64,000 nucleotides of DNA from Thermoproteota archaeon (lineage in GTDB: Archaea; Thermoproteota; EX4484-205; JAAOZO01), in NCBI GenBank assembly GCA_041479945.1, contig JBGOYZ010000002.1:7472-71471 (forward strand). The letters run 5' to 3'. The position numbers and the translations under genes are program-made. Numbering within the stretch: position 1 is the stretch's first letter; the number at the start of each line of letters is the position of its first letter. The notes under the pieces are model-generated. The model was not told the origin of the DNA. It saw only the letters and a list, made by a program, of their open reading frames with translations, and made no database searches. Below, one piece after another: positions 4,323-63,730 of the stretch.

Positions 4323-5357
<1,035 letters not shown>

Positions 5358-36618: not shown

Positions 36619-36638
36619 GATTGTCAGGATGCCTCAAC

Positions 36639-44956: not shown

Positions 44957-45307
44957 CTATGGTGGGGGAGGAGGCGGATCGGGCGGTGGTGGAGCCGGCG
45001 GCGGATTCTGTCCATCCACTGTGATGGCTCCGATGTCGCTTGCCGCAAGTTTGAAGCCTCCCATTTCTCTCACGTCGTATTCTTTTTCTCTGAGGAACTG
45101 TGCTATCTTGTACATCCACTTCTCCGAATCATCCCTGCTGTTGGCCATGTGCACTTTGGTGTCGTTCACATAGACCCAGTGCTCTCTGGTCCAGACATCA
45201 TATCCTATCCTTATCTCGACTGGTGTCTTCTTCTGTGCTGCGTTTAGGATCTTTCTCTCCCACTCTTCCTCGGCCCTCTGCTTCATCCTGTCCCAAATGC
45301 CAGCCAT
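44957..45307 (-). CDS. Small alpha/beta hypothetical protein ending in a C-terminal oligoproline tail (NPPPAPPPPDPPPPPP-stop)
   Basis: ATG start with a TATA-like AATATAAG about 25-30 bp upstream on the coding strand. No recognisable family. Confidence 0.5.
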   Translation of the reverse strand: MAGIWDRMKQRAEEEWERKILNAAQKKTPVEIRIGYDVWTREHWVYVNDTKVHMANSRDDSEKWMYKIAQFLREKEYDVREMGGFKLAASDIGAITVDGQNPPPAPPPPDPPPPPP

Positions 45308-45432
45308 TATCGCCGACTAGCCGGCAACTGAATATAAGCCTTGGAACGAGAATCTGCCGGACGCGTCACGCGGTACTTGGGTCAGAGTTGAGGCTTTGTC
45401 AGGGCTGCACCAGATGGCTTTGATGGATCTGT

Positions 45433-46320
45433 TCAGAGGGCCTTGAACTTTCTGCCCTGCAACACAACTCGATGCACGATTCTCTCATCCTGAGTAGGTT
45501 CGTCAGGTTTGGACTCCGCAATGACCTCTACGTAAGGCTCTAGGGGTCCGCCAACGATCTTCTTGAAGAGGGTTTCTTGGATCTGGAAAATCCCAGCGCT
45601 GTTTGACATTTTGATGTATATCCCGATCGGGCAACTTGTGCCCTTGGTTATGTTCACTTCTTCAATGCTGAGGGCCGAAACCGTGTGTATGTTCACGTTT
45701 CCGCTGTCGAACGCCATTCTCCCTCGGCCCTTCGTCATGTCCGTCCCGTCGCTTATCCCAACGAGAGCTGCCTCTATGGTTAGATCCTGCACATCATATT
45801 CGTGTGAGTAGATGCAGTTGAGAATGTGGCCGCGGATCTCGTACATGATCTCAGGGTCTTCGTATATCTCGGGCAGAAGGCGATCCAACAGAGGTATCGC
45901 CAGATACACACCATGCAGGTTGTGATCGACTCTATGTACTTGATTTCCTATGTCGTGCAGCAGCCCTCCTGCCAAGACCACGAGGTAGTCATCATCTATG
46001 TCTCCTGCTTTCTCTTTCACCAAGTCGCCGACGACGCCGCTTTGATCAAGCAACTTCAGCATTCTCAGCGCATTCGTCGCAACTATCTTCATGTGAATCT
46101 CGCCGTGGTCGTTGAAATGGAGCTTAGCGACGGCGATGTAGTTGGACATGTCCCAATCCGCATTCACTTCAGCGTCCTGTTGCATGAGTTTCCAGAGTTT
46201 CAGAGCCTTTGGTTTGTCCTCCAGGATCTTCGTTATGGTTTCCTCCGCTTCCCGCTTCATCTTGTCGTAGCTCTCGGGGAGTTCGAGTTCGAAGCCCTTA
46301 CCAGTGGCTATCTTCACCAT
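45433..46320 (-). CDS. HD-domain phosphohydrolase
   Basis: HD motif LAGGLLHDIGN plus downstream His/Asp ligands. Confidence 0.65.
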   Translation of the reverse strand: MVKIATGKGFELELPESYDKMKREAEETITKILEDKPKALKLWKLMQQDAEVNADWDMSNYIAVAKLHFNDHGEIHMKIVATNALRMLKLLDQSGVVGDLVKEKAGDIDDDYLVVLAGGLLHDIGNQVHRVDHNLHGVYLAIPLLDRLLPEIYEDPEIMYEIRGHILNCIYSHEYDVQDLTIEAALVGISDGTDMTKGRGRMAFDSGNVNIHTVSALSIEEVNITKGTSCPIGIYIKMSNSAGIFQIQETLFKKIVGGPLEPYVEVIAESKPDEPTQDERIVHRVVLQGRKFKAL

Positions 46321-46524
46321 GTTGACCGATCAATTCGACTGGCCGTTGCCTTAAATGGCTTCTTGGCGCGCAGGCCTATTCCGATTTGCCATTGCCGACG
46401 CTCGTCCAAGAGGCTGGGCAGAACGGGAATCGCAATATCCATTCCACCGGCCGCAAAGGACGTCAATGCAGGTGCTGGGTCTGTGTTTTGGAAAGCGGCG
46501 CCTTATATAGACAAAGGATGTATC

Positions 46525-48573
46525 GTGCGTCTGAAGGAGGACACTCTATTGCCGATCTATGAGGATGCAAGTTACGGTGGCGAGACTGTCAAGGTTGGCA
46601 ACTCCAAGATGCGTGTCGAGATCCACAAACGTTTGACAGGTTGGGGTTGGGCTGAGATCTTCAACGCGACTGGCCAGCTGATTGCCGTGCTGGACCATTT
46701 CGGAGAGGTCAAGTTCCCCGGTCTGGCTATTCCGCTGCGCATGGAAGCTCAGAAGTATGAGTTGGAGAAGGGTGAGTTTGGTCAGCGTCTCACCTTCCCT
46801 GTGACGTTGACGAGTTTGAGCGACATGGCTGGAACCTCAAGTTTCAAGAGTTGGTTCAAGCTACCCTTCACTCAGCCGGCCATCGAGGGAAAAGTGACAG
46901 TCACGTTAGATCCTGACTCCCCGGTCCTGAGGATGACCTACGAGTTCAAGCTTCTGGCCATACTCGAAATGAGCTATCTTCGGGGACCATGGCTCGAAGT
47001 TGGTGCTAACAGTTTCGGCGCAGCGAAGGACGATGGGATCTTTCCGGGCCTTGAATGGCTTGTCGGAAATGAGTGGTCTAGCGGCACCGACTGGTTCCAG
47101 CATCCATGGGCCCTACGTGTTGTTCCTCATCCGTTCAAAGTGGCAGCAGGACTCATGGCTTTGAGCCATGATGGAACTGGCATCGGCTTAGCTTGGGACC
47201 CGTTGGCAAACTTCGCGCCAGACCGGCCCTATCCTCAGCCGGTATTCGCTTCGCCGAACTTCATCGACCGGAAGAACGACCACATCATGGGCTTGATGCT
47301 TCCAAGCGTTGCTTGGGGTGCAGAAGAGAACGTCTTGGAAGCCGACCCGCCATTGGAGCTACGCACAAATAGCACCATCAAGCTTGAAGCAGAAGTGTTT
47401 CTGGTCGAAGGCGACAGCTTGGACGTGATGATAGACTGGGCCAAGCGGCATGGTTTGCCTGAACCGCCGAAGCCACGCTATCCACTTTCCGAAGCTTTGG
47501 ACCGCATAGCCCGTGCCTACAACAGCAACCTCTGGTATGAAGGCAAGGGCTGGGGCATGAACCGCGAGGGAAATGGCGCGGCGAGTCCGGCGGAACCCCT
47601 GTTTATGGAACGCTACATCAAAGATGGCCACGACCGCGAGAGTGCCAAGGGCTTGGCTGAAAAGCTGGAATGGGTTCGAGGACAGCCCACATATGAGACC
47701 TATGAAGTCTGGGGTGGCTCTAGACGATTCAAGATCTGGAGCCCGGAGAAACGGCTCGAATACGGCCGCCAACTCCTGTCCTATCAGAGGGAAGATGGCT
47801 CCTTCCCATTCGAACCAGACGGCAGACATAGTTTCCCGGACCACTCCGCTCTTTCTGACGGAACGTTGAAGCCTTTGGGGAAGAAAGGCGATACTGCTCT
47901 AGATCTGTGTGTTCAGCCTGCGATCGATCTGTTGATATTGGCCGACATGACTGGTGAGAAGTCGTTCCGTGAGGCTGCCAAGAAAGCTTTGGACTACTGC
48001 TTGTCTATGAAGCGTCCTGAAGGCGGCGACTGGTGGGAGACCCCTCTGCACAGCCCGAACCTGCTGGCTGCTGGTCATGCAGCCATCGCCTATTATCTCG
48101 GCTACAAGGCTTTCAAGGATCCACGCTACCTGAAGAAGGCGATTCGCTGGATCCGTTCGCTGCTTCCCTTCACCCACCTGTGGGAACCATATCGATTGCC
48201 CCAGATGTACAACACGAAACCATGCTTCTGCGCGACTGATTGGTGGCTCTCAGACTGGGTGGCCAGACAAGTTCAGTGGGAGGTTCTGCAAACCTTCGCC
48301 CAGTCTGCTGAACTGGGCATAGACTGGGGAGAGATCGATCCAGAGATTGACTGGCACCGTTACCAGCGAGGTATCACCATCGCCGTCCTGAGATGGATGA
48401 TCGACCACGAGAACACAGTCAACACTGCTCTTTCACTGGATCGGGTCAAGAGCGGAGATTGGGACGCTCTCTTCCATGACGCCCACCACACCACAACCGG
48501 CACCTATGGTGGGGGCCCAATCATGCCAGACGTCATTGCGGTCAACATATTCAACGTGTTGGACAGGGAATGA
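46525..48573 (+). CDS. Large hypothetical protein: N-terminal beta-rich region plus C-terminal (alpha/alpha)-toroid repeat domain (possible glycoside hydrolase/lyase-like)
   Basis: C-terminal repeats of the type LLSYQREDGSF... and GGDWWETPL... resemble terpenoid-cyclase/prenyltransferase-type alpha-alpha toroid repeats. The track ORF start (45826) overlaps the HD gene. A GTG at 46525 preceded by AAAGGA, or the ATG at 46609, are plausible starts. Confidence 0.45.
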   Translation: MRLKEDTLLPIYEDASYGGETVKVGNSKMRVEIHKRLTGWGWAEIFNATGQLIAVLDHFGEVKFPGLAIPLRMEAQKYELEKGEFGQRLTFPVTLTSLSDMAGTSSFKSWFKLPFTQPAIEGKVTVTLDPDSPVLRMTYEFKLLAILEMSYLRGPWLEVGANSFGAAKDDGIFPGLEWLVGNEWSSGTDWFQHPWALRVVPHPFKVAAGLMALSHDGTGIGLAWDPLANFAPDRPYPQPVFASPNFIDRKNDHIMGLMLPSVAWGAEENVLEADPPLELRTNSTIKLEAEVFLVEGDSLDVMIDWAKRHGLPEPPKPRYPLSEALDRIARAYNSNLWYEGKGWGMNREGNGAASPAEPLFMERYIKDGHDRESAKGLAEKLEWVRGQPTYETYEVWGGSRRFKIWSPEKRLEYGRQLLSYQREDGSFPFEPDGRHSFPDHSALSDGTLKPLGKKGDTALDLCVQPAIDLLILADMTGEKSFREAAKKALDYCLSMKRPEGGDWWETPLHSPNLLAAGHAAIAYYLGYKAFKDPRYLKKAIRWIRSLLPFTHLWEPYRLPQMYNTKPCFCATDWWLSDWVARQVQWEVLQTFAQSAELGIDWGEIDPEIDWHRYQRGITIAVLRWMIDHENTVNTALSLDRVKSGDWDALFHDAHHTTTGTYGGGPIMPDVIAVNIFNVLDRE

Positions 48574-48601
48574 CGAAAGTTGTCATCCTGTGAGCGGAAG
48601 T

Positions 48602-50617
48602 TCATTCCACATACTCCAGCTCACCCTGTAGACGGATGTCTCTTGATGAGCTGCCCACGAGAATACCGAACTCGCCTGCCTCGGTGGTCCAGTGACCCGT
48701 CTTCTCATCCCAGAAGGAAAGGTCTTCCTCCGTGAGTGTGAATGTCACAGTCTCCGTCCGTCCGGGGTCTAGGTGCACCTTCTCGAAACCCTTCAGTTCC
48801 TTCAGGGGGCGTTCCACGCTCGAGGTAGAGTCATGCACGTAGAGCTGGACGACCTCTGCACCAGCACGGTCTCCCGCGTTGGTCACATCACCTATTACCT
48901 CCATGCCGCTGATCCTCAGGTTCGCGTAGGCAAACTTGGTGTACGATAGCCCGTGTCCAAACGGGAACAATGGTTCTATGCCTCTCGTGTCGAAATGGCG
49001 ATAGCCAACGAAGACCCCCTCATCGTAGTGGACCTCCTCTGCCCCGGGGAAGGTTCTCTCCGAAGCATGCGCGGGAGAATCCGAGAGCCTTCTCGGAAAC
49101 GTCAGAGGTAGCTTCCCAGAGGGGTTCACGTCGCCGAACAGCACTGCCGCGATTGCACGGCCCGCCTCCTGCCCCGCGTACCAAGCCTCCACCACGGTCG
49201 GCACCCTCTCAAGCCAGCCGTCCATCGTCACTGGGCTACCGTTGATCAAGACCACGACTGTCCTCGGATTCGCTTCCACGGTGCCGTTGATCAGCGCAAC
49301 CTGATCGGGCGGTAGCTCAAGGCTCTTCTTGTCCTCGCCTTCAGTGTCAATCCCTTTGAGCAGACCTTGGGACAGTCCTGCGAAGATGATTGTCACGTCG
49401 GCCTCGGCAGGGTTCCTCACGATTTCGATCTTCTCGCCGCATCGTTCCCTCAGACCATTGAGTGGTGTGACTTCATAGGGCGGCCTGACCATGGAGCTGC
49501 CGCCCTTCAAGCCCATCTTCTTGTCCGCGTTCGGCCCCAGCACTGCGATCCTCTTGACCTCGTCGGTTTTCAATGGCAGTGTGTCACGTTCGTTCTTGAG
49601 CAGGACGATGCCCTCTTCCGCGATCCTCCGGGTCAACGCCTGATGCTCAGGTGTGTTCCGGCTCCCAGCTGGCAGCGTCTTCTCGTCGTCGAAAAGACCT
49701 ACGAGGAACATCACTCTCAACAGGGCGGTCAGGTTTCTATCGAGCGCGTCCTCGCTGAACTTGCCCGCTTCGAATGCTGCCCGCAGTGCCTTCTCACTGT
49801 ACCTGCTGCCTCCGCCCGGCATTTCCAGGCTGAGCCCCGCGTTCACACAGCCTTCAGTGCTAGTCGTTGGGTTTGCCGCGTACCAGTCCGAAACAACGAA
49901 CCCCCTGAAACCCCACTCTTCCCTCAGCCTTTCTGTCAGCAGGTCATGGCTCTCGCAGCAGTAGGTCCCATTGACCTTGTTGTAAGCCCCCATCACCGAC
50001 CATGCATCCGCCTCCCTTATGACCGCCTCGAAGGCCTGCAGGTAGATCTCCCGCAATGCACGCTCACTGACCTGCGAGCTGACCTTCGTGCGATTCGTCT
50101 CTTGGTTGTTGCATGCGAAGTGCTTCACACATGCAGCCACGCGTTGGCTTTGGATCCCCTGCACGACAGCAACCGCCATCTTGCGGTTCAGGTATGGGTC
50201 CTCCGTCTGGTACTCGAATGTCCGCCCGCCTAGCGGAGTTCGATCGATGTTGACCGCGGGGGCGAGAACCATTTGATACCCGATCGAGCGCTCCTCCTGG
50301 GCCAGAGCTGCTCCGAACTGTTTCGAGAGGTCAGGATTCCACGTGGCTGTTCGGCAGATGCTTGCGGGGAAGTACGTGCCCTTCTTGAACACGGATAGAA
50401 TCGCGCCGAGCCCATTGGGACCATCGCTCATCCTAAACCCCTTGATGCCCAGTCGTTCTACAGGTTTCGTCGACCAAAGGTTCTTGCCGGCGCATAGTGA
50501 GAACTTCTCCTCCAAGGTCAATCGTTTCAGCAGGTCAGCTACCCTCTCCTCGATGCCCAACCTCTGGTTCATGAAGGGAAGCCTTGCTAGGTCATCGCGG
50601 GACATTTCCTCGTTCAC
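48602..50617 (-). CDS. Glycoside hydrolase family 3 beta-glucosidase (BglX-type) with C-terminal FnIII-like domain
   Basis: GH3 N-terminal domain KHFACNNQE and catalytic SDW nucleophile region (GFVVSDW). Length 671 aa. Confidence 0.85.
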   Translation of the reverse strand: MNEEMSRDDLARLPFMNQRLGIEERVADLLKRLTLEEKFSLCAGKNLWSTKPVERLGIKGFRMSDGPNGLGAILSVFKKGTYFPASICRTATWNPDLSKQFGAALAQEERSIGYQMVLAPAVNIDRTPLGGRTFEYQTEDPYLNRKMAVAVVQGIQSQRVAACVKHFACNNQETNRTKVSSQVSERALREIYLQAFEAVIREADAWSVMGAYNKVNGTYCCESHDLLTERLREEWGFRGFVVSDWYAANPTTSTEGCVNAGLSLEMPGGGSRYSEKALRAAFEAGKFSEDALDRNLTALLRVMFLVGLFDDEKTLPAGSRNTPEHQALTRRIAEEGIVLLKNERDTLPLKTDEVKRIAVLGPNADKKMGLKGGSSMVRPPYEVTPLNGLRERCGEKIEIVRNPAEADVTIIFAGLSQGLLKGIDTEGEDKKSLELPPDQVALINGTVEANPRTVVVLINGSPVTMDGWLERVPTVVEAWYAGQEAGRAIAAVLFGDVNPSGKLPLTFPRRLSDSPAHASERTFPGAEEVHYDEGVFVGYRHFDTRGIEPLFPFGHGLSYTKFAYANLRISGMEVIGDVTNAGDRAGAEVVQLYVHDSTSSVERPLKELKGFEKVHLDPGRTETVTFTLTEEDLSFWDEKTGHWTTEAGEFGILVGSSSRDIRLQGELEYVE

Positions 50618-50654
50618 GTAGGTCGCTCTACTATCTTAAGGCCTTGGGTGAGTA

Positions 50655-50975
50655 CTACTTGTGTTGACCTTTCCCCACAAGGTCGAGGATTATGGGTATG
50701 CTCAGTTCAGCGGACGAAACCCCCACGGAGAAAGCTAGCAACGCAGCTGCTTCCACTTCTTCCTTCGTTGCTCCGGCCTCGAATGCCTGGCTGACGAAAT
50801 GACGCAGCGCGCCTGCTTCTCGTATGGTCGAGCATATCCCAACATGGATCAGTGCCGCTGTCTTCTTGTCGAGAGCGTTGTTTTTGTTCGCGTGTTTCAT
50901 CATTTCTTGGTAAGCTCTCACAACTTCGGGTTCTTCGTTCTTGAACGCTTCCCAGGGACTGACTCCTTCTTTCAT
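50655..50975 (-). CDS. Carboxymuconolactone decarboxylase (AhpD-like) family protein
   Basis: CMD-family core with conserved HxGxC region (ALIHVGICSTI). Confidence 0.7.
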   Translation of the reverse strand: MKEGVSPWEAFKNEEPEVVRAYQEMMKHANKNNALDKKTAALIHVGICSTIREAGALRHFVSQAFEAGATKEEVEAAALLAFSVGVSSAELSIPIILDLVGKGQHK

Positions 50976-51055
50976 TGTCTTCTCACCGACCCGTTTGCGC
51001 ACTGGACTTATTAGAGTGACGTTTGGTTCCCACGGGAGCTCGCGTGCGTCGCGCG

Positions 51056-51829
51056 TTAGGCGGACAGCCTGTCTTTCACTTTGCCGCCCATCTTCTTGAG
51101 CGCCTCATAGATTGTTACTACGACTCCTAGGATCGCAAACACGATGATGAGGTTAAGGACCTCATGCAGACTCGCTATCACAAAGGCCTGCAGAAGGATC
51201 AATATCCCCCATACGACACCTAGCACGACGACTCCCCCCAGCAGCCTCGTAACGCTCGTGAAGTCTCTCCTGATCTCCGAGATTAGCTTGTCGGGTTCAT
51301 CAGCATATGACAGAAGAGCGACAGAGACTATCGCGAGCGCGGGCACAAGGCCATAGGCCAAAAACTGGCCGGGCAATGCCAAGAACTGCTGATCGACCTC
51401 TGTCGGAGCACCTCTGCTGCTGACGGAGTAGATCCCTGGAGACAGATCCACGTAGGCATTATCGGACTTCGTCTCAACGGTGACACCAGGCGACCTCAGC
51501 TCGAACCGATGCGTCCAGACTGCTCCTGAGCTGTCTGATATCTCGACATCAGTGAATACCACGTTGATCCCCATCACTGCGAACTTGTACGAAACCTCGA
51601 TCACGAGCCGAGGCTCGAAGAGGAAAGATGAGGTCACCGTGAAGGTCTTGGTTTCGTCTTCAAGGGAGTAGTGGGCAGGGTACCGTTCCCACAGTACGAT
51701 TCCGAAAAGGACCGCATCTACAAGCAGGAGAACAACGCCAACCGTGGTGAACGCTCGCGTAGTGCCTGAGGCCGGCGGAGGCGGCAGTGTCTCGCGGCTA
51801 ATCCCCAACGGACAGAAGGGATGCTGCAA
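51056..51829 (-). CDS. Hypothetical membrane protein
   Basis: N-terminal TM helix, beta-rich extracytoplasmic region, 3 C-terminal TM helices. N-terminus contains PPPPASG. The start is uncertain because a TATA-like box sits too close to the annotated start. Confidence 0.4.
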   Translation of the reverse strand: MQHPFCPLGISRETLPPPPASGTTRAFTTVGVVLLLVDAVLFGIVLWERYPAHYSLEDETKTFTVTSSFLFEPRLVIEVSYKFAVMGINVVFTDVEISDSSGAVWTHRFELRSPGVTVETKSDNAYVDLSPGIYSVSSRGAPTEVDQQFLALPGQFLAYGLVPALAIVSVALLSYADEPDKLISEIRRDFTSVTRLLGGVVVLGVVWGILILLQAFVIASLHEVLNLIIVFAILGVVVTIYEALKKMGGKVKDRLSA

Positions 51830-51909
51830 ATTCTACTTATAAGACTTGGCCTAGGACTTCTTACTTCAGCTGAGATTGTGCGTACTGCAGGGGTAGAACA
51901 AAGTGCGTG

Positions 51910-51944
51910 CAATCTGATAAGACCGAGAGTGGAGTATCAGATTG
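51910..51944. repeat. 10-bp inverted repeat CAATCTGATA-N15-TATCAGATTG
   Basis: Perfect inverted repeat between the BNR-protein gene 3' end and the promoter region of the membrane-protein gene. Confidence 0.4.
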
Positions 51945-52005
51945 TGTCTTCAGCCCAAACGCGTGTCACAATCGTGGCACTTTATCGCGCGCGGTTCTCC
52001 CTTGC

Positions 52006-52932: not shown

Positions 52933-53283
52933 AGCTGCCGGACCATGCAGGAATCGTTCAGGCTTGTTATCTATGATAACTCTGGGGCCGAGATTGAACG
53001 AAACCAGTCCTTCTCCACCGAAGATGATATGTCGGGATCCGTATTAAAGAGCGCGCTGAGATCAGGAGCCAGTTCGCCCGACCCGCTGGCCTCTCCCAAG
53101 AAGCAACTGGTGACTGGTGCCCAACAATACTGCGACATTTCCAGCACAGACATAGGCATCGAGGCACTAGCCTTCCTTGCCACTGCTCGTGTCTTGTCTG
53201 TCGCGCTTGGCTTACTGAACCCCTCCCTCCTTCCTGCTGATGTCCTATTGGAGCTACGCCAGTCCAGGCTATCCAGACAAGTC

Positions 53284-53291
53284 TTAAATAT
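53284..53291 (+). promoter_or_regulatory. TATA box TTAAATAT upstream of the DUF5678/retropepsin pair
   Basis: 30 bp upstream of the ATG at 53322. Confidence 0.45.
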
Positions 53292-53321
53292 GGTAAAGCT
53301 CTCCACTCCTTTGAACGCCAA

Positions 53322-53567
53322 ATGAAAGAAACACAACTCTTGGAGCGGTTGGAGAGGGCCCAGAAAGACAGCCAGTGGGTCAGCGAGAGCTATGATGAGC
53401 TTCAGGAGAAGTACGAAGGCAAGGTCTTCGCCGTTAAGGATCAGGGAGTTGTTGAGGCGGCTGAGACCGTGGACGATCTCATGAGCAAGTTACAGGCAAG
53501 AGGAGAGGATCCATCGCTCTTCCTCATCGAAGCCATCCCGCCCAAGGGCATCTCATTCATTCTCTAG
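53322..53567 (+). CDS. DUF5678-like small protein (partner of retropepsin-like protease)
   Basis: 81 aa with pattern W...ELQEKYEGKVFAVKDQGVV...VDDLMSKLQ...P.LFLIE typical of DUF5678. TTAAATAT box 30 bp upstream. Confidence 0.55.
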   Translation: MKETQLLERLERAQKDSQWVSESYDELQEKYEGKVFAVKDQGVVEAAETVDDLMSKLQARGEDPSLFLIEAIPPKGISFIL

Positions 53568-53576
53568 GCGGGTCAG

Positions 53577-54026
53577 ATGACCCACATACCTTGCACTGTC
53601 AGAAGATTCGCAGATGGGTATTTGCCCTTTGTGACATTCAGCATTCTTCAGCCTCCCCTCTATGTCACAATTGACGCGCTTGTGGACACAGGGAGCCCGT
53701 TCACAGTGCTCTCGCCCAAGGATGCACTGAGCACTAGGTTGCCCCTCTCAAGGATGAGGAGCGGCCCGACCATTGGCTTGGCTGGTTGCACATTTTTCCG
53801 TCACAACATCGGAACGGTAGCATTGTATTTCAGGAAGGAGGATGGCAGACTGCTCAGCGTGGAGGTGCCATCCATGAATGTGTTGGTGCCTACGAAGATG
53901 GACAGCAAGACATTGGAACAGGTAGAGGCCATACCGAGCCTTGTTGGGACCGACCTTTTGAAGGACAAAGGGTGGAGCTTGTACTTCAACCCGGGCGCGA
54001 ACCGAGCCTACCTAGAAATCCCTTGA
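53577..54026 (+). CDS. Retropepsin-like aspartic protease
   Basis: Active-site ALVDTGSPFTV (D-T-G) and the downstream hydrophobic-G-T-D-LL (LVGTDLL), analogous to retroviral GRD/N. 9 bp downstream of the DUF5678 gene. Confidence 0.65.
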   Translation: MTHIPCTVRRFADGYLPFVTFSILQPPLYVTIDALVDTGSPFTVLSPKDALSTRLPLSRMRSGPTIGLAGCTFFRHNIGTVALYFRKEDGRLLSVEVPSMNVLVPTKMDSKTLEQVEAIPSLVGTDLLKDKGWSLYFNPGANRAYLEIP

Positions 54027-54136
54027 CCGGCCGTTGAGGCCGAGCTAGCAAGACTCTGAATGAGCCGAAGACTTGACAGAACCCGCCGCCACAAGACTTA
54101 AGAGCTGAATCGAGTTCGTCCATCTAGGAAGAGAGA

Positions 54137-54402: not shown

Positions 54403-54993
54403 CTATGGCGGGGGAGGGAGACCCGGTGGAGGCGGTGGGGGGAAGCCCTGCTCGAATGTGGACCCAGTGCTCACTGGCCTGATTGGGCGGGACCTGCCAA
54501 AACCAACCAGTTTCTCTCCCAAAACACTCCTAAGCACGTTCATGTCCTGAGGGTCTGCGTCGAAGTTGAAGGAATAGTCGCCCTGCGGTGTCACTAGATC
54601 GAGAACGTAATAGTCCACTCCTATGCTTGAGTCCTCGTCAGGCTCCTCCTGCTTGTGCTCCACCGCGGCTACAGATACGCTCGATATTTCCACGGCTAGG
54701 TTTCCCGGAGTCTCGACGATGATCTGATCTGGAGTCATGCCCCAGTACTTGTTTGTGTATTCGATGATATCACCTGCAGTCAAGACTTTTCCGGCGAGCA
54801 GTCCTCCGAACAATCCTTTCTTTCCTTGCTGTGCTCTGATTTTTGACTGAACTTTGATTTCTTCCATCATCTGAGCTGTCAACTGGGCCACGATCAATCG
54901 CCGGTCGGTTGCGATTAGCGTGTACTGATGCGACCTGGCATAGCCAGCTGATTTCGAAAGGTGCGGAACTATCCCCGCTATCCTCTCTTCCAT
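54403..54993 (-). CDS. PH-domain-like hypothetical protein ending in C-terminal oligoproline tail (GFPPPPPPGLPPPP-stop)
   Basis: N-terminal YTLIATDRRLIV...KKGLFGG resembles bacterial PH/GRAM-like domains. ATG with a TATA-like CATAATAG about 30 bp upstream. Confidence 0.5.
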   Translation of the reverse strand: MEERIAGIVPHLSKSAGYARSHQYTLIATDRRLIVAQLTAQMMEEIKVQSKIRAQQGKKGLFGGLLAGKVLTAGDIIEYTNKYWGMTPDQIIVETPGNLAVEISSVSVAAVEHKQEEPDEDSSIGVDYYVLDLVTPQGDYSFNFDADPQDMNVLRSVLGEKLVGFGRSRPIRPVSTGSTFEQGFPPPPPPGLPPPP

Positions 54994-55139
54994 GAAGGCG
55001 GCTTGTTAGTGCAGTGCTATTATGCCTTCACACTGACGCGTTCCCTAGGTGGATCCAGAATCCGAGAGAACCCTCACTACGATGACTCTGTGGTCATTCC
55101 TTTGGGCATATATATCCCAGTCGGACTACGGTACAATCG

Positions 55140-56183: not shown

Positions 56184-56360
56184 AGAGCAGTAGTACTGGC
56201 GACTGACTGATGGTTTCAGCACGACCCAAGCAGGGACAAGTAATGGCTGAGATCAGTGGGTTGGTGAAGGAACTCGGGCGCGAACCGCTATCGGAATGTC
56301 CTTGGATCTCTGAGATTCTGACAGAATGTAGATGTCAGCCAGCAACCATGCTGCAGCTTT

Positions 56361-57191
56361 TCATCTCGGGGTCTCTCCAAGTCGGTAGTGGAAAATGCCA
56401 TTTGCTTTGGCAAACGGCGGGAGAAACCGTGTCCATCGAGTAATGGCTATGCGCGGCTCAGGGTGGTCGAGGAAGAACCACTCGTCCAGCAGACGGATAC
56501 CGTCGCCCCAACTCTCGAGATCTTTGCCGTGTTTCAGTCCCCAGTGATAACGGGCTCTGATCCTAGTTGTGGCCATCCTGCGGTTGTTCGCCCAGACTAC
56601 GCTCGGCACCACTGCGTCAAAGACCAATTCCGCGCCCGGGAAGTGCTCCCGCAACGTCAGCACCAGTGACTTGGCCTGTGCCTCTTCAAAGTACATCAGA
56701 ACTCCCTCGGCCAGGAAGAGGAAAGGGCGTTGGCGATGGACGCTCACAGTCTTCAGCCACGTGCTGTCGAACACCGAACAACTCAGTAGATGGTAGCGAG
56801 CCCCTTCGCCGCCGATGAGCTTCTTGCGCAGTTCAACTGCTTCCGGCAGATCGAGGTCATACCACTCCACCTTGCCATTGTCCACCCGCTCAAAGCGCGT
56901 GTCAAGGCCGCATCCAATATGGACAACTACAGCCTCCGGATGGCGATTCAGAAAATCCCGCGTGTGGCGGTCGAATTCTCGCGTACGCAGGGCAGCAGAT
57001 GCTTGGTCGGTCTCATCAAAAAACTTGAGTTGGGAGAAGTCATAGTCTATCCGTTGGACCAACGCGACGGCTCTGTCGTCTTTGAAAATGGCATCGGGTC
57101 GCTGCGATTCAATGGCTCGGACGTAGAGTGGGAAGAGCAACGTTTCAGCCACGTCGCTCAGCCTTTGAAGAGTGATCTTGGCCACGCTCAT
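56361..57191 (-). CDS. Class I SAM-dependent methyltransferase, leucine carboxyl methyltransferase (LCM/TcmP-like) family
   Basis: LCM-family SAM motif VVVHIGCGLDTRFERV and acidic motif YDLDLPE. Confidence 0.65.
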   Translation of the reverse strand: MSVAKITLQRLSDVAETLLFPLYVRAIESQRPDAIFKDDRAVALVQRIDYDFSQLKFFDETDQASAALRTREFDRHTRDFLNRHPEAVVVHIGCGLDTRFERVDNGKVEWYDLDLPEAVELRKKLIGGEGARYHLLSCSVFDSTWLKTVSVHRQRPFLFLAEGVLMYFEEAQAKSLVLTLREHFPGAELVFDAVVPSVVWANNRRMATTRIRARYHWGLKHGKDLESWGDGIRLLDEWFFLDHPEPRIAITRWTRFLPPFAKANGIFHYRLGETPR

Positions 57192-57295
57192 GTTCCCTAA
57201 GGTTCACGGCGGAACTTGCTTAAATCAATAACGATTCCCTTAGACAGGGAACGATGGGGAACGACCCTGCGGTGGAGCATGTGTGACCGGGCTCT

Positions 57296-58357
57296 TCAGA
57301 AGTCCCACTCGACTTCCACTTCTTTCTCGAGTTCGGCTGACCGGCCCACTGCCTCCAGAATCGCCTGATCCTTGAGACCCTCGATCGCAGGACAGAACAG
57401 TGGCTTTCCCTTTCTCACAGATTCCACGAACTTGAAGATCCTCTGCTCGTATATGTCAGGCTGCTTGATCTCGTCGTGGGGCTTTATGACCACCCTCTTC
57501 TGCAGGACATCCTTGTAGAACTCAAGTGGCGTGAGTTGGGCTCCACCTCTCGTTCCAAGCAACACTATTCCGAAAACGTCTGCAGGGGAGAAGGATGCCC
57601 AGTTCGTTTCGAGGAGCATGGTCATGCCGTTTCTGAACTTGATGAAACCGAAAGCGCTGTCCTCGACATTGAAGTTCTGCGCCTTCCAGTGCCCGCCCCA
57701 TCCTTCTTTCCTAGCCATCGTTGGATCCGTGCAGATCTTGTCGTATGTCACCGCGTATGCGGTCTTGGGTGCAGGGAATCCCAGGACGTACATTACCATG
57801 TCAACCGCATAGCACCCTATGTCCAGGAGCGGGCCGCCTCCGGAAAACTTCCTGTCGATGAACGTCGGCCTGACTGGCACTCCCCATTTCCTCAGGGCGA
57901 GAGCGCGCGAATAGTACACTTCTCCCAGTTCTCCCGCTTGCACGAGATCCTTGATTGAGTTCAGGTCTATCCTGAATCTCGTCTGATATCCAACAATCAG
58001 TATCCTCTTGTACTTCTTCGATGCTTCATACATCTGTCTTGCTCCCGACAGGCTTCCTGCCATCGGCTTCTCGGTCAACACGTGGACCCCGGCCTTCAAC
58101 GCGGCTATGGTCGGATCCTTGTGGACGACGTTCGGCGTACACACACTGACGGCATCCAAGCTCTCCTTCTCAAGCATCTCATTGTAGTCCTTGTAGAAGT
58201 GAGGGATCTTGAATTCCTTTGAAACCGCCTTGGCAGCCTTGAGGTCAATGTCAGCGCAGGCAGCGAGTTCGACACCCTCGAGCTTCTTGTAGTTGGGCAG
58301 GTGCGCTACCTTGGCGATGTTCCCAGTTCCGATTATGCCGACCCTGAGCTTCCTCAT
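57296..58357 (-). CDS. Gfo/Idh/MocA-family oxidoreductase
   Basis: LRVGIIGTGNIAKVAH Rossmann motif, EKP (LTEKPMA). ATG at 58357 (MRKLRV...). Confidence 0.8.
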   Translation of the reverse strand: MRKLRVGIIGTGNIAKVAHLPNYKKLEGVELAACADIDLKAAKAVSKEFKIPHFYKDYNEMLEKESLDAVSVCTPNVVHKDPTIAALKAGVHVLTEKPMAGSLSGARQMYEASKKYKRILIVGYQTRFRIDLNSIKDLVQAGELGEVYYSRALALRKWGVPVRPTFIDRKFSGGGPLLDIGCYAVDMVMYVLGFPAPKTAYAVTYDKICTDPTMARKEGWGGHWKAQNFNVEDSAFGFIKFRNGMTMLLETNWASFSPADVFGIVLLGTRGGAQLTPLEFYKDVLQKRVVIKPHDEIKQPDIYEQRIFKFVESVRKGKPLFCPAIEGLKDQAILEAVGRSAELEKEVEVEWDF

Positions 58358-58535
58358 AACCCCTGTGACAAGGACTTGACTTAAATCGCTTTTCCGGAAG
58401 CGGTTGACCTCCACATCACATGCAGAAAGAGAGACTAATACATAGGAAGCTATGAGCTGAAACCATCATGAAGAGACTCCTGAGCTTGCCTCACGCAAGA
58501 CATGCTTCAACGGGTCAGTCCATGCTCCTGCCGGG

Positions 58536-59594
58536 CTAGCTCCATCCGTGCTCATAGCCCGTCTCATACATCGCAACGATGTTCTCCGGAGGAGTTATCG
58601 ATTGGATGTTGTGACAGGGTGCGAGGATGTATCCTCCGCCCTCGCCAAGAATCCTGATGTTGTCAATCACCTCTCGCCGGACGTCATCTACCGTGCCAAA
58701 TGGAAGCGTATGTTGGTTGTCAACTCCCCCATGGAAGATCAGTTTATTGCCGAAGTCCCTTTTCAGCCCTTCCCTCTCCATTCCTTTGCATCGCCACTGG
58801 ATCGGATTCAAGAGATCGATTCCCGCTTCAATCAAGTCGGGTATGATTCTCCTTATCGCTCCATCAGAATGATGAAAGACGAAAGCTCCGACGCCATGGA
58901 CCAAGTTGATCATCCTCTTCATCCCGGGGATGAGGAATCTTCTGATGTGTTCTGGCGAATACATCAAGTCCTCCTGTCCCCCGAGATCTTCTGCCACATA
59001 GGTGATCATCACCTTTTTCGGAATCTGCTCGTAGATCCTCTTTGTGTTCTCATAGGAAAGATCGAACAGCGCGCCCATGCAATACTCAACTATGTCCGGG
59101 TTGATGATTAGGTCCTTGAATGCCTGTTCTTGGCCCCTCAAGTACTTGTAAGTGAGGAATGGCTCCGAGCCTCCTCCTCTGATCGGATACATTTCCTTAC
59201 CTCTGATTTGTTCCGGGATTGATGAGTGGTCATACCAATCAATGTCCGGCCATCTGTAGTTCCTCTCTATCTCTCCCACGGATTCATATCGTGCTAGTGG
59301 GTGAAAGACACACTCGTCATAGACTCCAGCGGAGTAATGAACTCTCTCGAACCTGCATCCAAAGACGTCTGCTCCTTCAGGAACTTGGGGGCCAATGTAT
59401 GTAGAGTGAACTGTCACCGGAGGATCGATGTGAAGCTTCTCGTACACCCCTTCCAGTGTCCCAACTCCCAAGTAGTTCATCAGATTCCGGCTCGTCTCAT
59501 CGGTTGCCCAGTAGTCCATCGGTATTCTGTCGGGCTTCTTTCTTCTCAGGACAGCCAGCCATCTCTCGCTGGGAAGCATCGTCTCCTTTTCCAT
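58536..59594 (-). CDS. Uroporphyrinogen decarboxylase (URO-D)-family protein
   Basis: URO-D/MtaA-like blocks (PDRIPMDYWAT..., C-terminal LAPCHNI). Second copy of this family in the window. Confidence 0.7.
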   Translation of the reverse strand: MEKETMLPSERWLAVLRRKKPDRIPMDYWATDETSRNLMNYLGVGTLEGVYEKLHIDPPVTVHSTYIGPQVPEGADVFGCRFERVHYSAGVYDECVFHPLARYESVGEIERNYRWPDIDWYDHSSIPEQIRGKEMYPIRGGGSEPFLTYKYLRGQEQAFKDLIINPDIVEYCMGALFDLSYENTKRIYEQIPKKVMITYVAEDLGGQEDLMYSPEHIRRFLIPGMKRMINLVHGVGAFVFHHSDGAIRRIIPDLIEAGIDLLNPIQWRCKGMEREGLKRDFGNKLIFHGGVDNQHTLPFGTVDDVRREVIDNIRILGEGGGYILAPCHNIQSITPPENIVAMYETGYEHGWS

Positions 59595-59733
59595 GCCGTC
59601 CTCTGACCTCTCACACTGTTGAAGTTAAGGTTTCAAACTTCCATTCCTTGACACTGCAGTTTGTGGGATCCACTGCGTGCTAGATGGCGCATCACTCGTT
59701 CGAACACGGCTTCTACGGGAGTTCTCTCGCGCG

Positions 59734-60288
59734 TCAAACGTTGCGGTTGGATACCATGAGAAGCCAAGCAGATGTCATGAGGCAGGAAAGGGTCTCTTGT
59801 ATTGCCACACCGTGCCAGGGCCACCCTATGGACCAGATCACCGGAATGGCTATGCCGAAAGCCAGACTGATCGCCCCGATCTTCGGGGAACTCAAAGCCC
59901 GCGAATAGTAGCTGTACATCAGCATGCTAGCAGCCATCAAGGAGAACAGTATCACGGATACCACGAAGTGTATCGACCCTGTGTTTTCGGAAAAGAAGCC
60001 AACTAGGGCAAGATCTACTCCTGCCGCCGCTGTCGGTATCGACCAACTCAGGTACTTCAGGGAACGATATCGAACCGAGATGAGAATGGCAAAGCATGCT
60101 ACCAGTCCTCCCGAGAGAATCAGGCCGAAGTTGAAGATCCATGCGGTTGAGGCATGAAGGGCTGAGTTCCCCAGATCGCTCAGTGCGTTGTTGCTGAGGT
60201 CGAACCAAGGAGAAAGGATGATGGATGCACCTATGAATGGATATGCTGCGACGGCACTCAACCCTCCAATGATCTTCTGAGGTTCCAT
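59734..60288 (-). CDS. Hypothetical polytopic membrane protein (DUF998-like)
   Basis: 6 predicted TM helices. No soluble domain. Confidence 0.4.
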   Translation of the reverse strand: MEPQKIIGGLSAVAAYPFIGASIILSPWFDLSNNALSDLGNSALHASTAWIFNFGLILSGGLVACFAILISVRYRSLKYLSWSIPTAAAGVDLALVGFFSENTGSIHFVVSVILFSLMAASMLMYSYYSRALSSPKIGAISLAFGIAIPVIWSIGWPWHGVAIQETLSCLMTSAWLLMVSNRNV

Positions 60289-60493
60289 CGGATCGCAATC
60301 TATCTGAGGGGATTTAATCTTTGGCCAGAATCCGCGAGTCCTCGTGCCGGTGCATGCAACCCAAACGATCGCTCTGAAGTCTTATAGGCCGCAACGGATG
60401 AGTCTCCTGGACTACTCTCGAGGCAGGAAGATGATCTCAGATCCGGACCGTATTGTCTTGCGGGCCCTCGCTGGGCGTGTGGTGGCCAAGGGG

Positions 60494-60543
60494 GTAAACC
60501 CCTAGAGATGTACATATGAGAGTAAACTCCTAGAGGTTTACAT
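60494..60543. repeat. Tandem near-palindromic motif GTAAAC-N8-GTTTAC (two 22-nt units, 28-nt period) in a 665-bp non-coding region
   Basis: Unit 1 GTAAACCCCTAGAGATGTACAT (60494..60515); unit 2 GTAAACTCCTAGAGGTTTACAT (60522..60543); 19/22 identical. Unit 2 has perfect 6-bp inverted arms and a central CTAG. Confidence 0.5.
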
Positions 60544-60961
60544 TGTCCAGAAAAGCTGGGGATGTCTACGCGGTCACGGTCGACACTAGGGGATCAAGGG
60601 CCAGATTGAGGCGTACTAGATCCAGCGGGAGGAGTCTACAAGATCTGGCTGGACCTTCGGTCTTTGACCAACTTGTCCCGGAATCGTCGCGATGATAAGA
60701 CTTAGAGCACTCTTAGGCGTCGTGTGGGTTCATCCCTCAGCTTTCCCCACGTGCAGATGAATCCAAATCCACAGCTCTGGCCGCATCGGAGACTGGCGGT
60801 ATTAGATGAGCTGGATTCCTCTCAGAGGATCGGCTGTTTCGGTGGGCTTGTCCCATTACCTTAGGGCGATACGTGCACGGGACCATTTCAGGCTGCCAAT
60901 GGAGGTTTCAAGAACAGTGAGGGTGGCAAGGCTTAAGTAGATTGCGAAGTCAGTGCGTTTG

Positions 60962-61462
60962 ATGCACCCTTCTGAACGTGGAAGGGGTGGGAAATCCGAT
61001 TACGACGTACAGATAGAATCAGCAGGGGAGATGTGTGCGGAAATGGAAAGCCTTGCGGCAAGGATCAAGACGGCGAAAGATCTGATCGAAGGTCCCAACG
61101 TATCTCCTAGTGAGAAATCCGATCTGGAGCGAGCCAGGGCTGAGCTGGTAGCTCTGTTAGACTTCAAGACCAAGGTGCTGAGGTCGAGCTTGGACAGACT
61201 GGGGGAAGAACGTGGCCGGTCTGAGAGAATGATGTCTTTTCTCGAGAGGGAACTGGGAAGAGAACGTGCCATGCTTGCGATAGAAAAAGAGTCCAACGAG
61301 GATAAGGAAAAGGAATTTGAGGCCCAGCTTAGGATAAGCAGACTGGGTAAGGAACTGGTCCTTCAACAGAGCAGGGCGAAGGCTATTGGCGAAGCACTTG
61401 ATTTGCTGAAACCCGTGTTCGAAAAGGCGGCCATCACGACGGAGCTGGCCCCTGCGAAGTGA
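60962..61462 (+). CDS. Hypothetical coiled-coil protein
   Basis: Heptad-rich, charged (E/R/K/L) sequence. ATG at 60962 lies about 25 bp downstream of CTTAAGTA. Confidence 0.4.
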   Translation: MHPSERGRGGKSDYDVQIESAGEMCAEMESLAARIKTAKDLIEGPNVSPSEKSDLERARAELVALLDFKTKVLRSSLDRLGEERGRSERMMSFLERELGRERAMLAIEKESNEDKEKEFEAQLRISRLGKELVLQQSRAKAIGEALDLLKPVFEKAAITTELAPAK

Positions 61463-61726
61463 ACGCCGGGAGGCAATGTCCTCAGGCCAGCGTTTCCCCT
61501 AATAGGGATTTGAGTGCAAGACCTATCCCAGATGACGACCAAGATCCGCGGGACATCGCTTGCGACAAGGACATGCCAACGCTGAGATCCAAGTGGAGGT
61601 GGCTGTACTCCACAGTCGTAGATTGCGAATGGGAAAGAATGCCACCTCGTGTACGACCCACTCCCGAAGTCATCAAGGCTTATATGCGGACCTCCGACAT
61701 CAGCATGGCAACAGCTTCGAGCATCG

Positions 61727-63730
61727 ATGAAATGCCCCGTGGTCTTCACAGTCATTGCCTTGCTTCTGGTCACGGTTTCGCTCCCTTGGTTGATCGGCGT
61801 CAGGGGGTCTGATGAACAGGCTCAGGTCATGAGCCACAAATCGTTCATAGAACATGGGACTTTCGAGATCGACGGACACTACGAGGGAGATTTCCTGCAC
61901 GTGATTGGGGTGATCCAGGTTACGGGCGCGGGAAACATCGAAGATGTCAGAGTAGACTTGACATTCTACGATGCAGTGGGCGATCGCATAACAGCTGGCC
62001 CGGTCGAGTCACTGTTGGGAACATACCGGGAAGTGGACGGTGTGAAGACGCCCTACAACCTGCTCGGGCCGGGCGACAAGCTTCCCTTCCATGTCGTTCT
62101 TCTAGATGAGGTCGCGAGCGCCAAGGTTGACGCCTATGACATCTCCTTGAAGTACGCAACTACGGAGGAGCAACCATACAGGAACTTGGTCATCCTCAAT
62201 CACAGGTTGAGATCGTTCTACGGATCCAAGTCCGTGATAGGTGAGCTGACAAACGCGGGACAGGAGAACATTCACTGCGTGTCCGTCCATGTGGCCTTCT
62301 ACGATGCCAGTGGGGAGATCATGGGGGCTGAATACTACCCGATTCCGCTCAGCGTCATGGTCCCGGGAGACAAGCTGGTCTTTGCCACGTACTCAGCCAT
62401 GATAGACGAGGATGTCAGCTATGAGCTGACACCTGTTTGCATCGAGGCAGACTATGCGCCCTACAGGGAGTTCAGGATACTCTCCCACTCGTCTCGCTTG
62501 GATCAATACGGCGATTTCATTGTTGAGGGAGAGGTAGCAAACACGGGGAGCAAGGAGGCCACGAATGTCAACGTCGCAGTTGACTTCTACGACAGGTTCG
62601 GAATACCGCTTGGCGCGAACGACGCTGAGATACCGAGCATCCAGAGTGGCGGCAGTAGCCCCTTCAGCGTTCGACTCTGGGACATGGACTTGGCAAGCGA
62701 GGTCGCGAACTATACCTTCCACGTGAGTTCCGGTCCATACACGACAGGTGCTCCACCCTTACATGAGGAGGAACCTGTGAGGTCGCCCTCGTCCCTGCCG
62801 GTGGCATCGGTGGCCGTGGCTATCGGTGCTGGAGTCTCCGCTGGGTTGACTGCTACCGCAGGAGCGACGGGATTGGGACAACAGTTCAACGCGGCCGTGT
62901 CCAGACTGGATCTTCCCAACTCGATCAAGGACTTCCTCAAGTTCTACACGGAGGAGACCTTCAAACACGTGACCGGGAAGGAGGCGAAGGTCAAGAGGCG
63001 CAAAAGATACATGTCGATCAGTAGGCTTCTCTCTCTCGTGATTTCGGCCACTGCATTAGTGGTCGTGCTCTCATATGCCGAACTGAACGGCTTGTCGGGG
63101 TTTCTGAACGTATCCGAACTCATGTCAGTCATGCCCAGCGTGCTAATCACGGTAGTCCTGTTCCTCGTCATCAAGGAGGCAGTCGCTCTGATCATTGGGA
63201 ACATGCTCAATGTCCTTTGCGAGCTCAAGGTGTGGCTCCACGGGCTATTCGCCCTCCTCATCTCAGGGCTAGGGTTTCTCCTGCCGTTTGGCTCCCCTTG
63301 GAGGACCGATTACGAAGGCGATTTGGACGTGAAAGGTGCCGGACTCATCGGGACTCTGAAAATCCTCTGTGACCTGGCGCTCATGATCCCGTTCTACGGC
63401 TTCACATTGCTGGGGTATGAACTCATCGGGGACGCAGGTATGCTCTTGACAACGATGTCAGCCTACTACTCGTCCTTCCCCCTGAGGCCACTCGAAGGGA
63501 AAGCTGTTTTCGAATACAACAAGGCGCTCTGGGCCTCCCTCTTCGCAGGATCACTTGCTCTCTTCGTCTCGTGCTCTGCCAAGCTGTTGCCAAGCATGGC
63601 ATATCTGTTGGGAGGGTCTCTCGCGATGGCCCTGTTCATCGGTATACTGATCTTAGAGATGAAGAGAGCCAGGGGGCGATCCGCGATGGAAGGGACTGTG
63701 GAAATTCCTCCACCCCCTCCTCCGTTGTGA
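61727..63730 (+). CDS. Large membrane protein: signal-anchor, three tandem about 100-aa beta-domain repeats with (V/L)xFYDxxG motif, polytopic C-terminal domain, C-terminal oligoproline tail (IPPPPPPL-stop)
   Basis: ATG at 61727 (MKCPVVFTVIALLLVTVSLPWLIG) gives a signal/anchor; the track's upstream GTG extension is less likely. Repeats contain VDLTFYDAVGDRITAG, VHVAFYDASGEIMGAE and VAVDFYDRFGIPLGAN. At least 6 TM helices after residue about 400. Confidence 0.55.
   Translation: MKCPVVFTVIALLLVTVSLPWLIGVRGSDEQAQVMSHKSFIEHGTFEIDGHYEGDFLHVIGVIQVTGAGNIEDVRVDLTFYDAVGDRITAGPVESLLGTYREVDGVKTPYNLLGPGDKLPFHVVLLDEVASAKVDAYDISLKYATTEEQPYRNLVILNHRLRSFYGSKSVIGELTNAGQENIHCVSVHVAFYDASGEIMGAEYYPIPLSVMVPGDKLVFATYSAMIDEDVSYELTPVCIEADYAPYREFRILSHSSRLDQYGDFIVEGEVANTGSKEATNVNVAVDFYDRFGIPLGANDAEIPSIQSGGSSPFSVRLWDMDLASEVANYTFHVSSGPYTTGAPPLHEEEPVRSPSSLPVASVAVAIGAGVSAGLTATAGATGLGQQFNAAVSRLDLPNSIKDFLKFYTEETFKHVTGKEAKVKRRKRYMSISRLLSLVISATALVVVLSYAELNGLSGFLNVSELMSVMPSVLITVVLFLVIKEAVALIIGNMLNVLCELKVWLHGLFALLISGLGFLLPFGSPWRTDYEGDLDVKGAGLIGTLKILCDLALMIPFYGFTLLGYELIGDAGMLLTTMSAYYSSFPLRPLEGKAVFEYNKALWASLFAGSLALFVSCSAKLLPSMAYLLGGSLAMALFIGILILEMKRARGRSAMEGTVEIPPPPPPL

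Follow-up and report, generated by a model that had tools for sequence, protein, structure and literature searches.

Introduction

Signalling through proline-rich motifs is well known in eukaryotes, has been described recently for bacterial GYF domains and, to our knowledge, is known in archaea only from the recognition of MIM2 motifs by MIT domains. Here we compare these systems with a set of oligoproline tails encoded in a 64,000-nucleotide stretch of a Thermoproteota archaeon genome (contig JBGOYZ010000002.1, positions 7,472 to 71,471 of the forward strand), which we refer to as the window. A preliminary description of the window had pointed out that three otherwise unrelated proteins end in prolines directly before the stop codon: a soluble protein of 116 amino acids (aa), a PH-like protein of 196 aa and a membrane protein of 667 aa. 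We found that these tails are strongly non-random, that they are conserved in the protein rather than in the DNA, and that in two of the three families a zinc ribbon can take their place. We tentatively propose that they are docking motifs.

The closest described system is bacterial. In Myxococcus, the membrane protein GltJ carries a cytosolic region composed of a zinc ribbon (ZnR), a linker and a GYF domain that works as a docking switch, the GYF domain binding a proline-rich sequence of AglZ with micromolar affinity and the ZnR binding MglB; a ZnR lies next to the GYF domain in about 44% of the bacterial proteins that have one (PMC11135422). Balaji and Aravind described bacterial GYF proteins as often flanked by proline-rich stretches, ZnRs and transmembrane (TM) segments (PMC2034487). 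The window tails resemble the ZnR-GYF systems (GYF_2, PF14237) in that small cytosolic modules sit on membrane or surface proteins and on adaptors, in the presence of a cytosolic proline-rich segment as the putative docking element, and in the zinc ribbon as an alternative or adjacent module, the PH-like family being often fused to Zn_Ribbon_1 or GYF_2 domains and to proline-rich linkers. They differ in that the run is near-homopolymeric, sits at the extreme C-terminus and belongs to an archaeon. The tail-bearing proteins themselves lack GYF_2 and ZnR domains, and no GYF reader was present among the genes of the lineage that we sampled (about 95 in addition to the window).

That a cytoplasmic domain can read a proline-based peptide at a C-terminus has a precedent within the archaea: in the TACK group, the MIT domain of CdvC binds a MIM2 motif (phi-P-x-phi-P) located close to the C-terminal end of CdvB or CdvA (PMC8970359). 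The strings PPGLP in the 196-aa protein, PPDPP in the 116-aa protein and PPDLP in an ortholog from a related genome (L037) loosely fit the MIM2 core, as nearly any proline run does; the published MIM2 expression requires a charged residue at x. In contrast to the MIM2 proteins, the tail carriers showed no Snf7 or CdvA domain when scanned, and MIM2 motifs are not homopolymeric.

In eukaryotes, polyproline ligands such as formin FH1 segments, the FPPPP strings of ActA and zyxin and the PPPGHR motif of CD2 are read by profilin, EVH1, SH3, WW and GYF domains. The window tails share with them runs of five or more prolines, a place on cytoplasmic receptor tails, and strings that resemble FPPPP or PPG followed by a hydrophobic residue (GFPPPPPPGLPPPP). 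They do not conform to an EVH1 class I ligand: the window reads GFPPPPPP and its orthologs GPPPPPPP, GFSPPPPP and GYPPPPPP, so that the position ahead of the run, F in the window, varies among orthologs (P, S or Y), and acidic flanks are absent. Within the Asgard archaea, a Heimdallarchaeial profilin is reported to bind polyproline (PMC8410842). The present organism differs from the eukaryotic and Heimdallarchaeial cases in being a non-Asgard archaeon, with Bathyarchaeia as its nearest named relatives, and reader domains were not detected in the sampled DNA.

Archaeal PGF-CTERM and PEF-CTERM signals are cleaved and tripartite: a signature motif precedes a TM helix, which leads into a short basic tail. 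Like the oligoproline tails they are C-terminal, occur on surface proteins and vary between lineages. The proline runs, however, follow the TM helix and its basic residues and lie in the cytoplasm, or are carried by soluble proteins; they are not members of this class, and we agree with the preliminary description that they are not archaeosortase sorting signals.

Results

Oligoproline ends exceed chance in the window

The three open reading frames are present and end as had been described, in runs of 4-7 prolines with 0-1 residue between run and stop codon, and they lie within 19 kb of one another (Table 1). Among 59 likely window proteins (19,682 residues, 5.0% proline), we counted 6 runs of four or more prolines where 0.12 were expected, an excess of about 50-fold, and 5 of the 6 fell in the three C-terminal tails. 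Runs of Gly, Val and Leu in the same proteins were near expectation. Since these residues showed no such excess and nearly all proline runs lay in the tails, the excess is specific to proline and to protein ends. Across all six reading frames of the 64 kb, PPPP occurs 8 times, 5 of them inside the three tails. Under a model of independent residues, PPPP at position 0 or -1 relative to the end is expected 0.0007 times per 58 proteins, which gives a probability of about 6e-11 for three or more such ends. Oligoproline terminates 3 of 58 window proteins and none of 308 genes from reference archaeal and bacterial loci (Fisher p = 0.004). The tails are real, and their frequency lies well beyond chance.

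Table 1. Tail-bearing genes, their tail-coding segments and further proline-rich features of the window.
Feature	Position	Strand	Sequence	Remarks
116-aa gene	44957..45307	-	...NPPPAPPPPDPPPPPP, stop TAG	soluble alpha/beta protein
196-aa gene	54403..54993	-	...GFPPPPPPGLPPPP, stop TAG	soluble PH-like protein
667-aa gene	61727..63730	+	...EIPPPPPPL, stop TGA	FxLYD-domain membrane protein
116-aa tail-coding segment	44957..45004	-	PPPAPPPPDPPPPPP + TAG	mixed CCG, CCA, CCC and CCT codons
196-aa tail-coding segment	54403..54441	-	PPPPPPGLPPPP + TAG	
667-aa tail-coding segment	63707..63730	+	PPPPPP-L + TGA	
740-aa surface protein tail	38781..38843	+	RRPKAAITTAPPSPPTMPPT, stop	gene 36621..38843; follows single C-terminal TM helix
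PPPP near N-terminus	51773..51784	-	...ETLPPPPASGTTRAF	gene 51056..51829; possibly related feature

The carriers are unrelated and the tails cytoplasmic

No domain common to the three proteins was detected in Pfam and NCBIfam scans, which bears out the statement that they share nothing recognisable besides the tail. The 196-aa protein consists of a split PH domain with a helical insert, a disordered linker and the tail. Its PH-like label was confirmed: the protein conforms to the definition of this fold, a seven-stranded beta-sandwich capped by a C-terminal helix with significant structural similarity to solved PH, GRAM, GLUE or PTB domains. The 116-aa protein is a soluble alpha/beta protein with many invariant Trp and Tyr residues, for which no known family or fold match was found. 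The 667-aa protein begins with a signal or anchor, which is followed by extracellular repeats, a C-terminal region with several TM helices and a cytoplasmic tail ending in KRARGRSAMEGTVEIPPPPPPL. Its repeats, previously called FYD repeats, correspond to the FxLYD domain, FxLYD_dom (NCBIfam NF038353) matching two stretches of the protein with 66.8 bits against a cut-off of 23.

A hydropathy scan placed the tail of the 667-aa protein after the last TM helix and a basic KRARGRS segment, and because it follows both, the tail is cytoplasmic by the positive-inside rule. The scan covered the membrane proteins; the 116-aa and 196-aa proteins, judged by eye from their sequences and without signal-peptide prediction, contain no hydrophobic segment or signal peptide.

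The window encodes two further membrane proteins with features of this kind. A 740-aa surface protein with LamG, DUF5050 and InlB-B-repeat domains in its ectodomain continues after its TM helix into a cytoplasmic, proline-rich RRPK...PPSPPTMPPT segment. The only other in-frame PPPP in the window (ETLPPPPASG) lies just before the first TM helix of the membrane protein encoded at 51056..51829.

The tails are conserved at the level of the protein

Orthologs of all three families, at 52-98% identity, retain the tails, and the proline codons in them are a mix of all four synonyms. Since the prolines are kept while their codons vary synonymously, the tails are conserved at the amino-acid level, upon which a slippage-type variation in length is superimposed. 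The tails are therefore not a coincidence of codon bias, as the preliminary description had also argued; close relatives in every family carry them, and they are absent in more distant homologs.

In the 196-aa family, all full-length relatives with at least 71% identity have the tail (P0001-5, P0007, P0032), in the forms P6GLP4, P7GP5, SP5GLP5 and P7. Compared with the ortholog in L162, 5 of 10 aligned proline codons differ synonymously. In 11 strain-level sequences the tail is invariant and the adjacent linker varies. Judged from these alignments, selection appears to keep the tails in place at the protein level, the 196-aa tail being fixed where its linker drifts. Relatives at 45-56% identity lack the tail and end after the globular domain or in a zinc ribbon instead. 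One near-identical member of the 196-aa cluster (P0179) carries the JGI/IMG label 'septum formation topological specificity factor MinE'. We found no Pfam or NCBIfam support for this label, which is probably a spurious automatic annotation, triggered perhaps by the amphipathic helical insert.

In the 116-aa family, three full-length homolog clusters all keep the tail. Ortholog tails read PPPPPPPDLPPPP in L037 and PPPPPPADLPPPP in L031, each followed by a stop, with differing third codon positions and post-stop bases. Among strains it is invariant except for one allele that is one proline shorter. In a fourth homolog cluster (L031:10001-10420), the gene call for the ortholog gives 139 aa and a C-terminus unrelated to that of the family, and an oligoproline tail (AVPPPPPPADLPPPP and stop) is intact in another frame at 10270-10311. 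A frameshift is indicated, due either to an assembly error or to decay into a pseudogene, a programmed shift being less likely.

In the membrane-protein family, strain alleles of the 667-aa protein end in P5L, P6L, P7L or PPLPPPPPL, that is in P5 to P8, and every one closes with PL. Relatives with a tail range from 51 to 93% identity (P0016, P0017, P0021, P0024, P0025), those at 51-53% ending in VPPPPLPPPPDQFT, PPLPPPPPPPPAPMTSPH or SLPPPPPPPA; in P0021 and P0024 the run lies 4-7 residues before the stop. No relatives of this family were found in a genome collection of species representatives, which apparently does not include the lineage.

DNA similarity around the stop codons is largely imposed by proline codons

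The preliminary description had noted nearly identical DNA, including a CGCG after the TAG, at the stops of the 116-aa and 196-aa genes, and had seen in it a shared and possibly transferable module. A hand count does give 19 of 22 identical nucleotides around the two stops. This similarity is largely forced by the CCN codons themselves: once the surrounding sequences are aligned, no flanking similarity beyond these codons is left, and none exists upstream of them. The CGCG is not kept either. Post-stop bases in the 116-aa family are CGCGCG in the window and CTGGTG or CGTGTG in orthologs, and in the 196-aa family CGCGGG in the window and AATGGG in the ortholog. The C-terminal module is common at the protein level, as had been suggested, but neither the third codon positions nor the post-stop bases support a module transferred as DNA.

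Three further explanations for the sequence at these stops were considered and rejected. Read-through of TAG, or an extension by way of pyrrolysine, would lengthen one protein by 3 residues and the other by a stretch that is not conserved; TAG accounts for 20 of 58 window stops (34%). A truncated zinc-ribbon remnant beyond the 196-aa stop was sought in the read-through translation, which contains no CxxC motifs. Strand-symmetric expansion of G/C tracts would call for a matching excess of poly-Gly, and there is none.

Oligoproline and zinc ribbon alternate at the same position

In two unrelated families, the PH-like and the membrane proteins, the same C-terminal position is occupied by oligoproline, by a zinc ribbon or by nothing. 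Tails have been gained in unrelated families and alternate with the ribbon. Within the PH-like family the C-terminus is a zinc ribbon in P0008, P0027 and P0149. Within the membrane-protein family, a CxxC..CxxC zinc ribbon replaces the tail in two members (P0020, P0026), and the tail is absent in four others.

The related locus that carries the zinc-ribbon variant of the membrane protein (L165:622-6599) encodes three adjacent membrane proteins of 284, 616 and 708 aa with unrelated ectodomains, all of which end in a TM helix followed by a cytoplasmic CxxC..CxxC ribbon. As these three proteins show, small cytoplasmic tail modules evidently spread among unrelated neighbouring surface proteins in this group. 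Between the 284-aa and 708-aa proteins, the TM-plus-tail part is 56% identical over 78 residues and the last ~30 residues are nearly identical (...IVRPA.KYCIECGEVIPEVAMYCPRCAS[KR]QE), an indication that the tail module was recently copied from one of the two genes to the other. In the window the situation is alike, except that oligoproline stands where this locus has the zinc ribbon.

The PH-like family combines zinc ribbons, GYF_2 domains and proline-rich linkers

An exhaustive profile search with the PH-like core returned 392 relatives, and we broke down the domain architecture of the 150 best representatives among them. An N-terminal Zn_Ribbon_1 or DZR domain is present in 55 of these 150, a C-terminal zinc ribbon in 2 and an N-terminal GYF_2 domain in at least 6. 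When five members were tested against Pfam, all five matched GYF_2 (E 4e-18 to 2e-5), three of them above the gathering score; the match of P0102, at 24.8 bits, fell just under the 25.8-bit gathering score. Runs of P4 to P11 occur in 16 of the 150, in 14 cases within linkers that follow the ZnR or GYF_2 domain. C-terminal oligoproline was found in only 1 of the 150, a close relative of the window protein.

The tails are rare and confined to one lineage

The further genes that we sampled comprise about 25 from the organism itself and close strains (L168, L170) and about 65-70 that lie beside orthologs in more distant relatives (L031, L035, L037, L162, L164, L165). None of these ~95 genes ends in an oligoproline tail, nor does any of 172 genes from reference Bathyarchaeia and other archaeal loci. 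The tails are a rare trait of a few proteins in one lineage and not a proteome-wide feature. A metagenome scan for the bipartite form P4-x-L/F-P4-stop returned at least 120 matches; among the matches listed none came from this lineage, and nearly all lay in short frames outside genes, within repeats or GC-rich DNA.

The window itself matches contigs of two metagenome-assembled genomes (MAGs; GCA_041500725.1 and GCA_964405495.1) and of several metagenome assemblies. Among species representatives, its phosphoglycerate kinase (PGK) is closest to that of Candidatus Bathyarchaeia MAGs, at 51-54% identity.

Neighbouring genes

The gene content of the window is one of carbohydrate catabolism. A type I (bacterial/eukaryotic-like) GAPDH (Gp_dh_ match; 4323-6704) is divergently paired with PGK and may be a horizontally acquired glycolytic gene.

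Directly adjoining the 116-aa gene is a gene for a 295-aa protein with a weak HD-domain match (45433-46320, minus strand). The same protein directly adjoins the 196-aa tail gene in L162 (6833-7720), so it may be a conserved neighbour of tail genes, or the arrangement may reflect a local rearrangement. Between the HD-like gene and a GH3 beta-glucosidase lies a gene for a 696-aa protein without a Pfam or NCBIfam match (46483-48573, plus strand). Just downstream of the PH-like gene are a DUF5678 protein (81 aa) and a 149-aa protein with an LVDTGS motif, a retropepsin-like aspartic protease signature (53322-54026, plus strand); this pair is kept in all strain contigs.

Immediately upstream of the FxLYD gene, a predicted coiled-coil protein of 166-187 aa without a family match (60953-61462, plus strand) is kept in all strain-level contigs (L001, L028, L170). 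In one close strain (L170:3513-9038), about 5.5 kb of extra genes, encoding proteins of 368 aa, 444 aa (an acetyltransferase), 649 aa, 105 aa and 80 aa, are placed between the DUF998 and coiled-coil genes upstream of the membrane protein, and a ParE toxin with a DUF2683 partner and a DpnI-like endonuclease are found downstream. The tail-bearing genes lie in variable surroundings. At another locus (L168:14790-14990), a 66-aa protein combines an N-terminal half rich in Pro and Ala (TTAPPAVTPSGAPPVVP) with an extremely basic C-terminal one (KKPAKKKRAKRKAAKRAKKKVRSR) and is reminiscent of a small histone-tail or nucleic-acid-binding protein.

Discussion

We propose that the tails serve as a proline-rich docking motif that is specific to this lineage, faces the cytoplasm and is read by a common partner, an interpretation that we hold tentatively and regard as falling somewhat short of probable. 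The tail would be a short linear motif, that is a terminal polyproline-II segment of 4-8 prolines exposed to the cytoplasm, often bipartite (P6-x-L-P4) and located at the C-terminus or a few residues from it. Such a handle would recruit a few unrelated proteins to one and the same cytoplasmic partner, a reader of proline-rich peptides; the recruited proteins would be the PH-like adaptor, the small soluble protein, the FxLYD surface/membrane protein and, probably, another surface protein. As candidates for this reader we consider a GYF_2-like domain, a CdvC/Vps4-type ATPase through its MIT domain, an SH3-like domain or a zinc-ribbon protein. A role of the tail as a binding ligand is suggested by analogy with the systems described above, and zinc ribbon and oligoproline may be alternative handles of the same kind. 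We count in favour of docking that the PH-like family sits in a network of ZnR, GYF_2 and proline-rich modules.

Several observations weigh against this proposal. GYF, SH3, WW, profilin, EVH1 and MIT domains were absent from the scanned window proteins and from the precomputed Pfam lists of the ~95 further genes of the lineage, and no GYF domain had been detected in archaea as of 2007 (PMC2034487). No gene neighbour of the tail-bearing genes was found to be conserved. Tail length is variable and the tail is missing in more distant homologs, as it would be in neutral low-complexity extensions. In AlphaFold2 (AF2) models, the tail of the 196-aa protein is not docked onto its own domain. Lastly, it is purely by analogy that the tail is regarded as a ligand.

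If the tails had no specific partner, they could be tolerated low-complexity extensions that arose from slippage or from shifts of the stop codon and that persist since they are harmless, or since they confer a generic benefit as a stiff spacer or as a C-terminus resistant to carboxypeptidases and degradation. The length polymorphism of the membrane-protein run among strains (P5 to P8), the shortened 116-aa allele, the loss of tails in distant homologs and the failure to find a reader in the window and the ~95 lineage genes are all consistent with this explanation, as is the nature of the carriers, which are lineage-restricted, functionally uncharacterised and poor in homologs. Extensions free to drift would not, however, be expected to survive across 52-98% identity in three families under synonymous codon turnover, or to stay invariant in the 196-aa protein beside a changing linker. 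The excess is also specific to proline and to termini, with no poly-Gly counterpart, and the terminal Leu is found in every membrane-protein allele. Polyproline is moreover costly to translate, requiring EF-P or a/eIF5A, so that neutrality is not the default expectation. On balance we consider this explanation unlikely.

The tails might instead act during translation, as tags through which output is tuned by aIF5A/hypusine status or by the availability of prolyl-tRNA; with polyproline directly ahead of the stop, both elongation and termination would depend strongly on aIF5A. By sequence, three or more consecutive proline codons in P4-P6 runs 0-1 codons before the stop constitute a predicted stalling motif of the kind relieved by a/eIF5A or EF-P, and all three tails in the window lineage lie within 0-1 residue of the stop. 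It is established that ribosomes stall at PPP and PP-stop, that EF-P and eIF5A relieve this stalling and that eIF5A contributes to termination (see, for example, PMC5499558 and PMC13602936). The stop context is not essential, however, given the runs that lie 4-7 residues upstream of it (P0021, P0024) or in internal linkers, and there is no conserved downstream gene to which translation could be coupled. The replacement of the tail by a folded zinc ribbon in relatives points to a role at the level of the protein. We therefore favour a ligand over a translational tag, which we judge improbable, although a translation cost and a ligand role are not mutually exclusive.

That the prolines are a by-product of a DNA or RNA element, either a transferable cassette or a C- or G-rich signal such as a terminator, a G-quadruplex or anti-Shine-Dalgarno pairing, is very improbable and largely refuted, since the 19 of 22 identical nucleotides (TAG-CGCG included) and the proximity of the three genes stand against orthologs that keep the prolines and change third positions and post-stop bases, the lack of similarity upstream of the proline codons, a third tail that uses TGA in a different context, the absence of a poly-Gly gene excess on the opposite strand, and a TAG that is a common stop and yields no conserved extension on read-through.

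Conserved terminal P5-P8 tails on unrelated, cytoplasm-facing termini suggest a selected function, because runs of polyproline burden translation and are seldom seen in prokaryotic proteins. For a docking motif they would be unusual in being near-homopolymeric, strictly terminal and found in a non-Asgard archaeon. A broader extension of the docking proposal, and one that we regard as doubtful, is that a non-Asgard archaeon uses a eukaryote-style network of short linear motifs, with interchangeable oligoproline and zinc-ribbon handles, rapid swapping between them and a putative reader. Should the tails prove neutral, they would serve as a calibration case for motif-hunting in metagenome-derived proteomes. 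If they are docking handles, signalling through proline-rich motifs would extend to an uncultured archaeal lineage, and a 12-residue peptide would be a concrete bait for the partner. The occurrence of three tail states in two unrelated families offers a natural experiment on the gain and exchange of small cytoplasmic adaptor modules by the surface proteins of prokaryotes.

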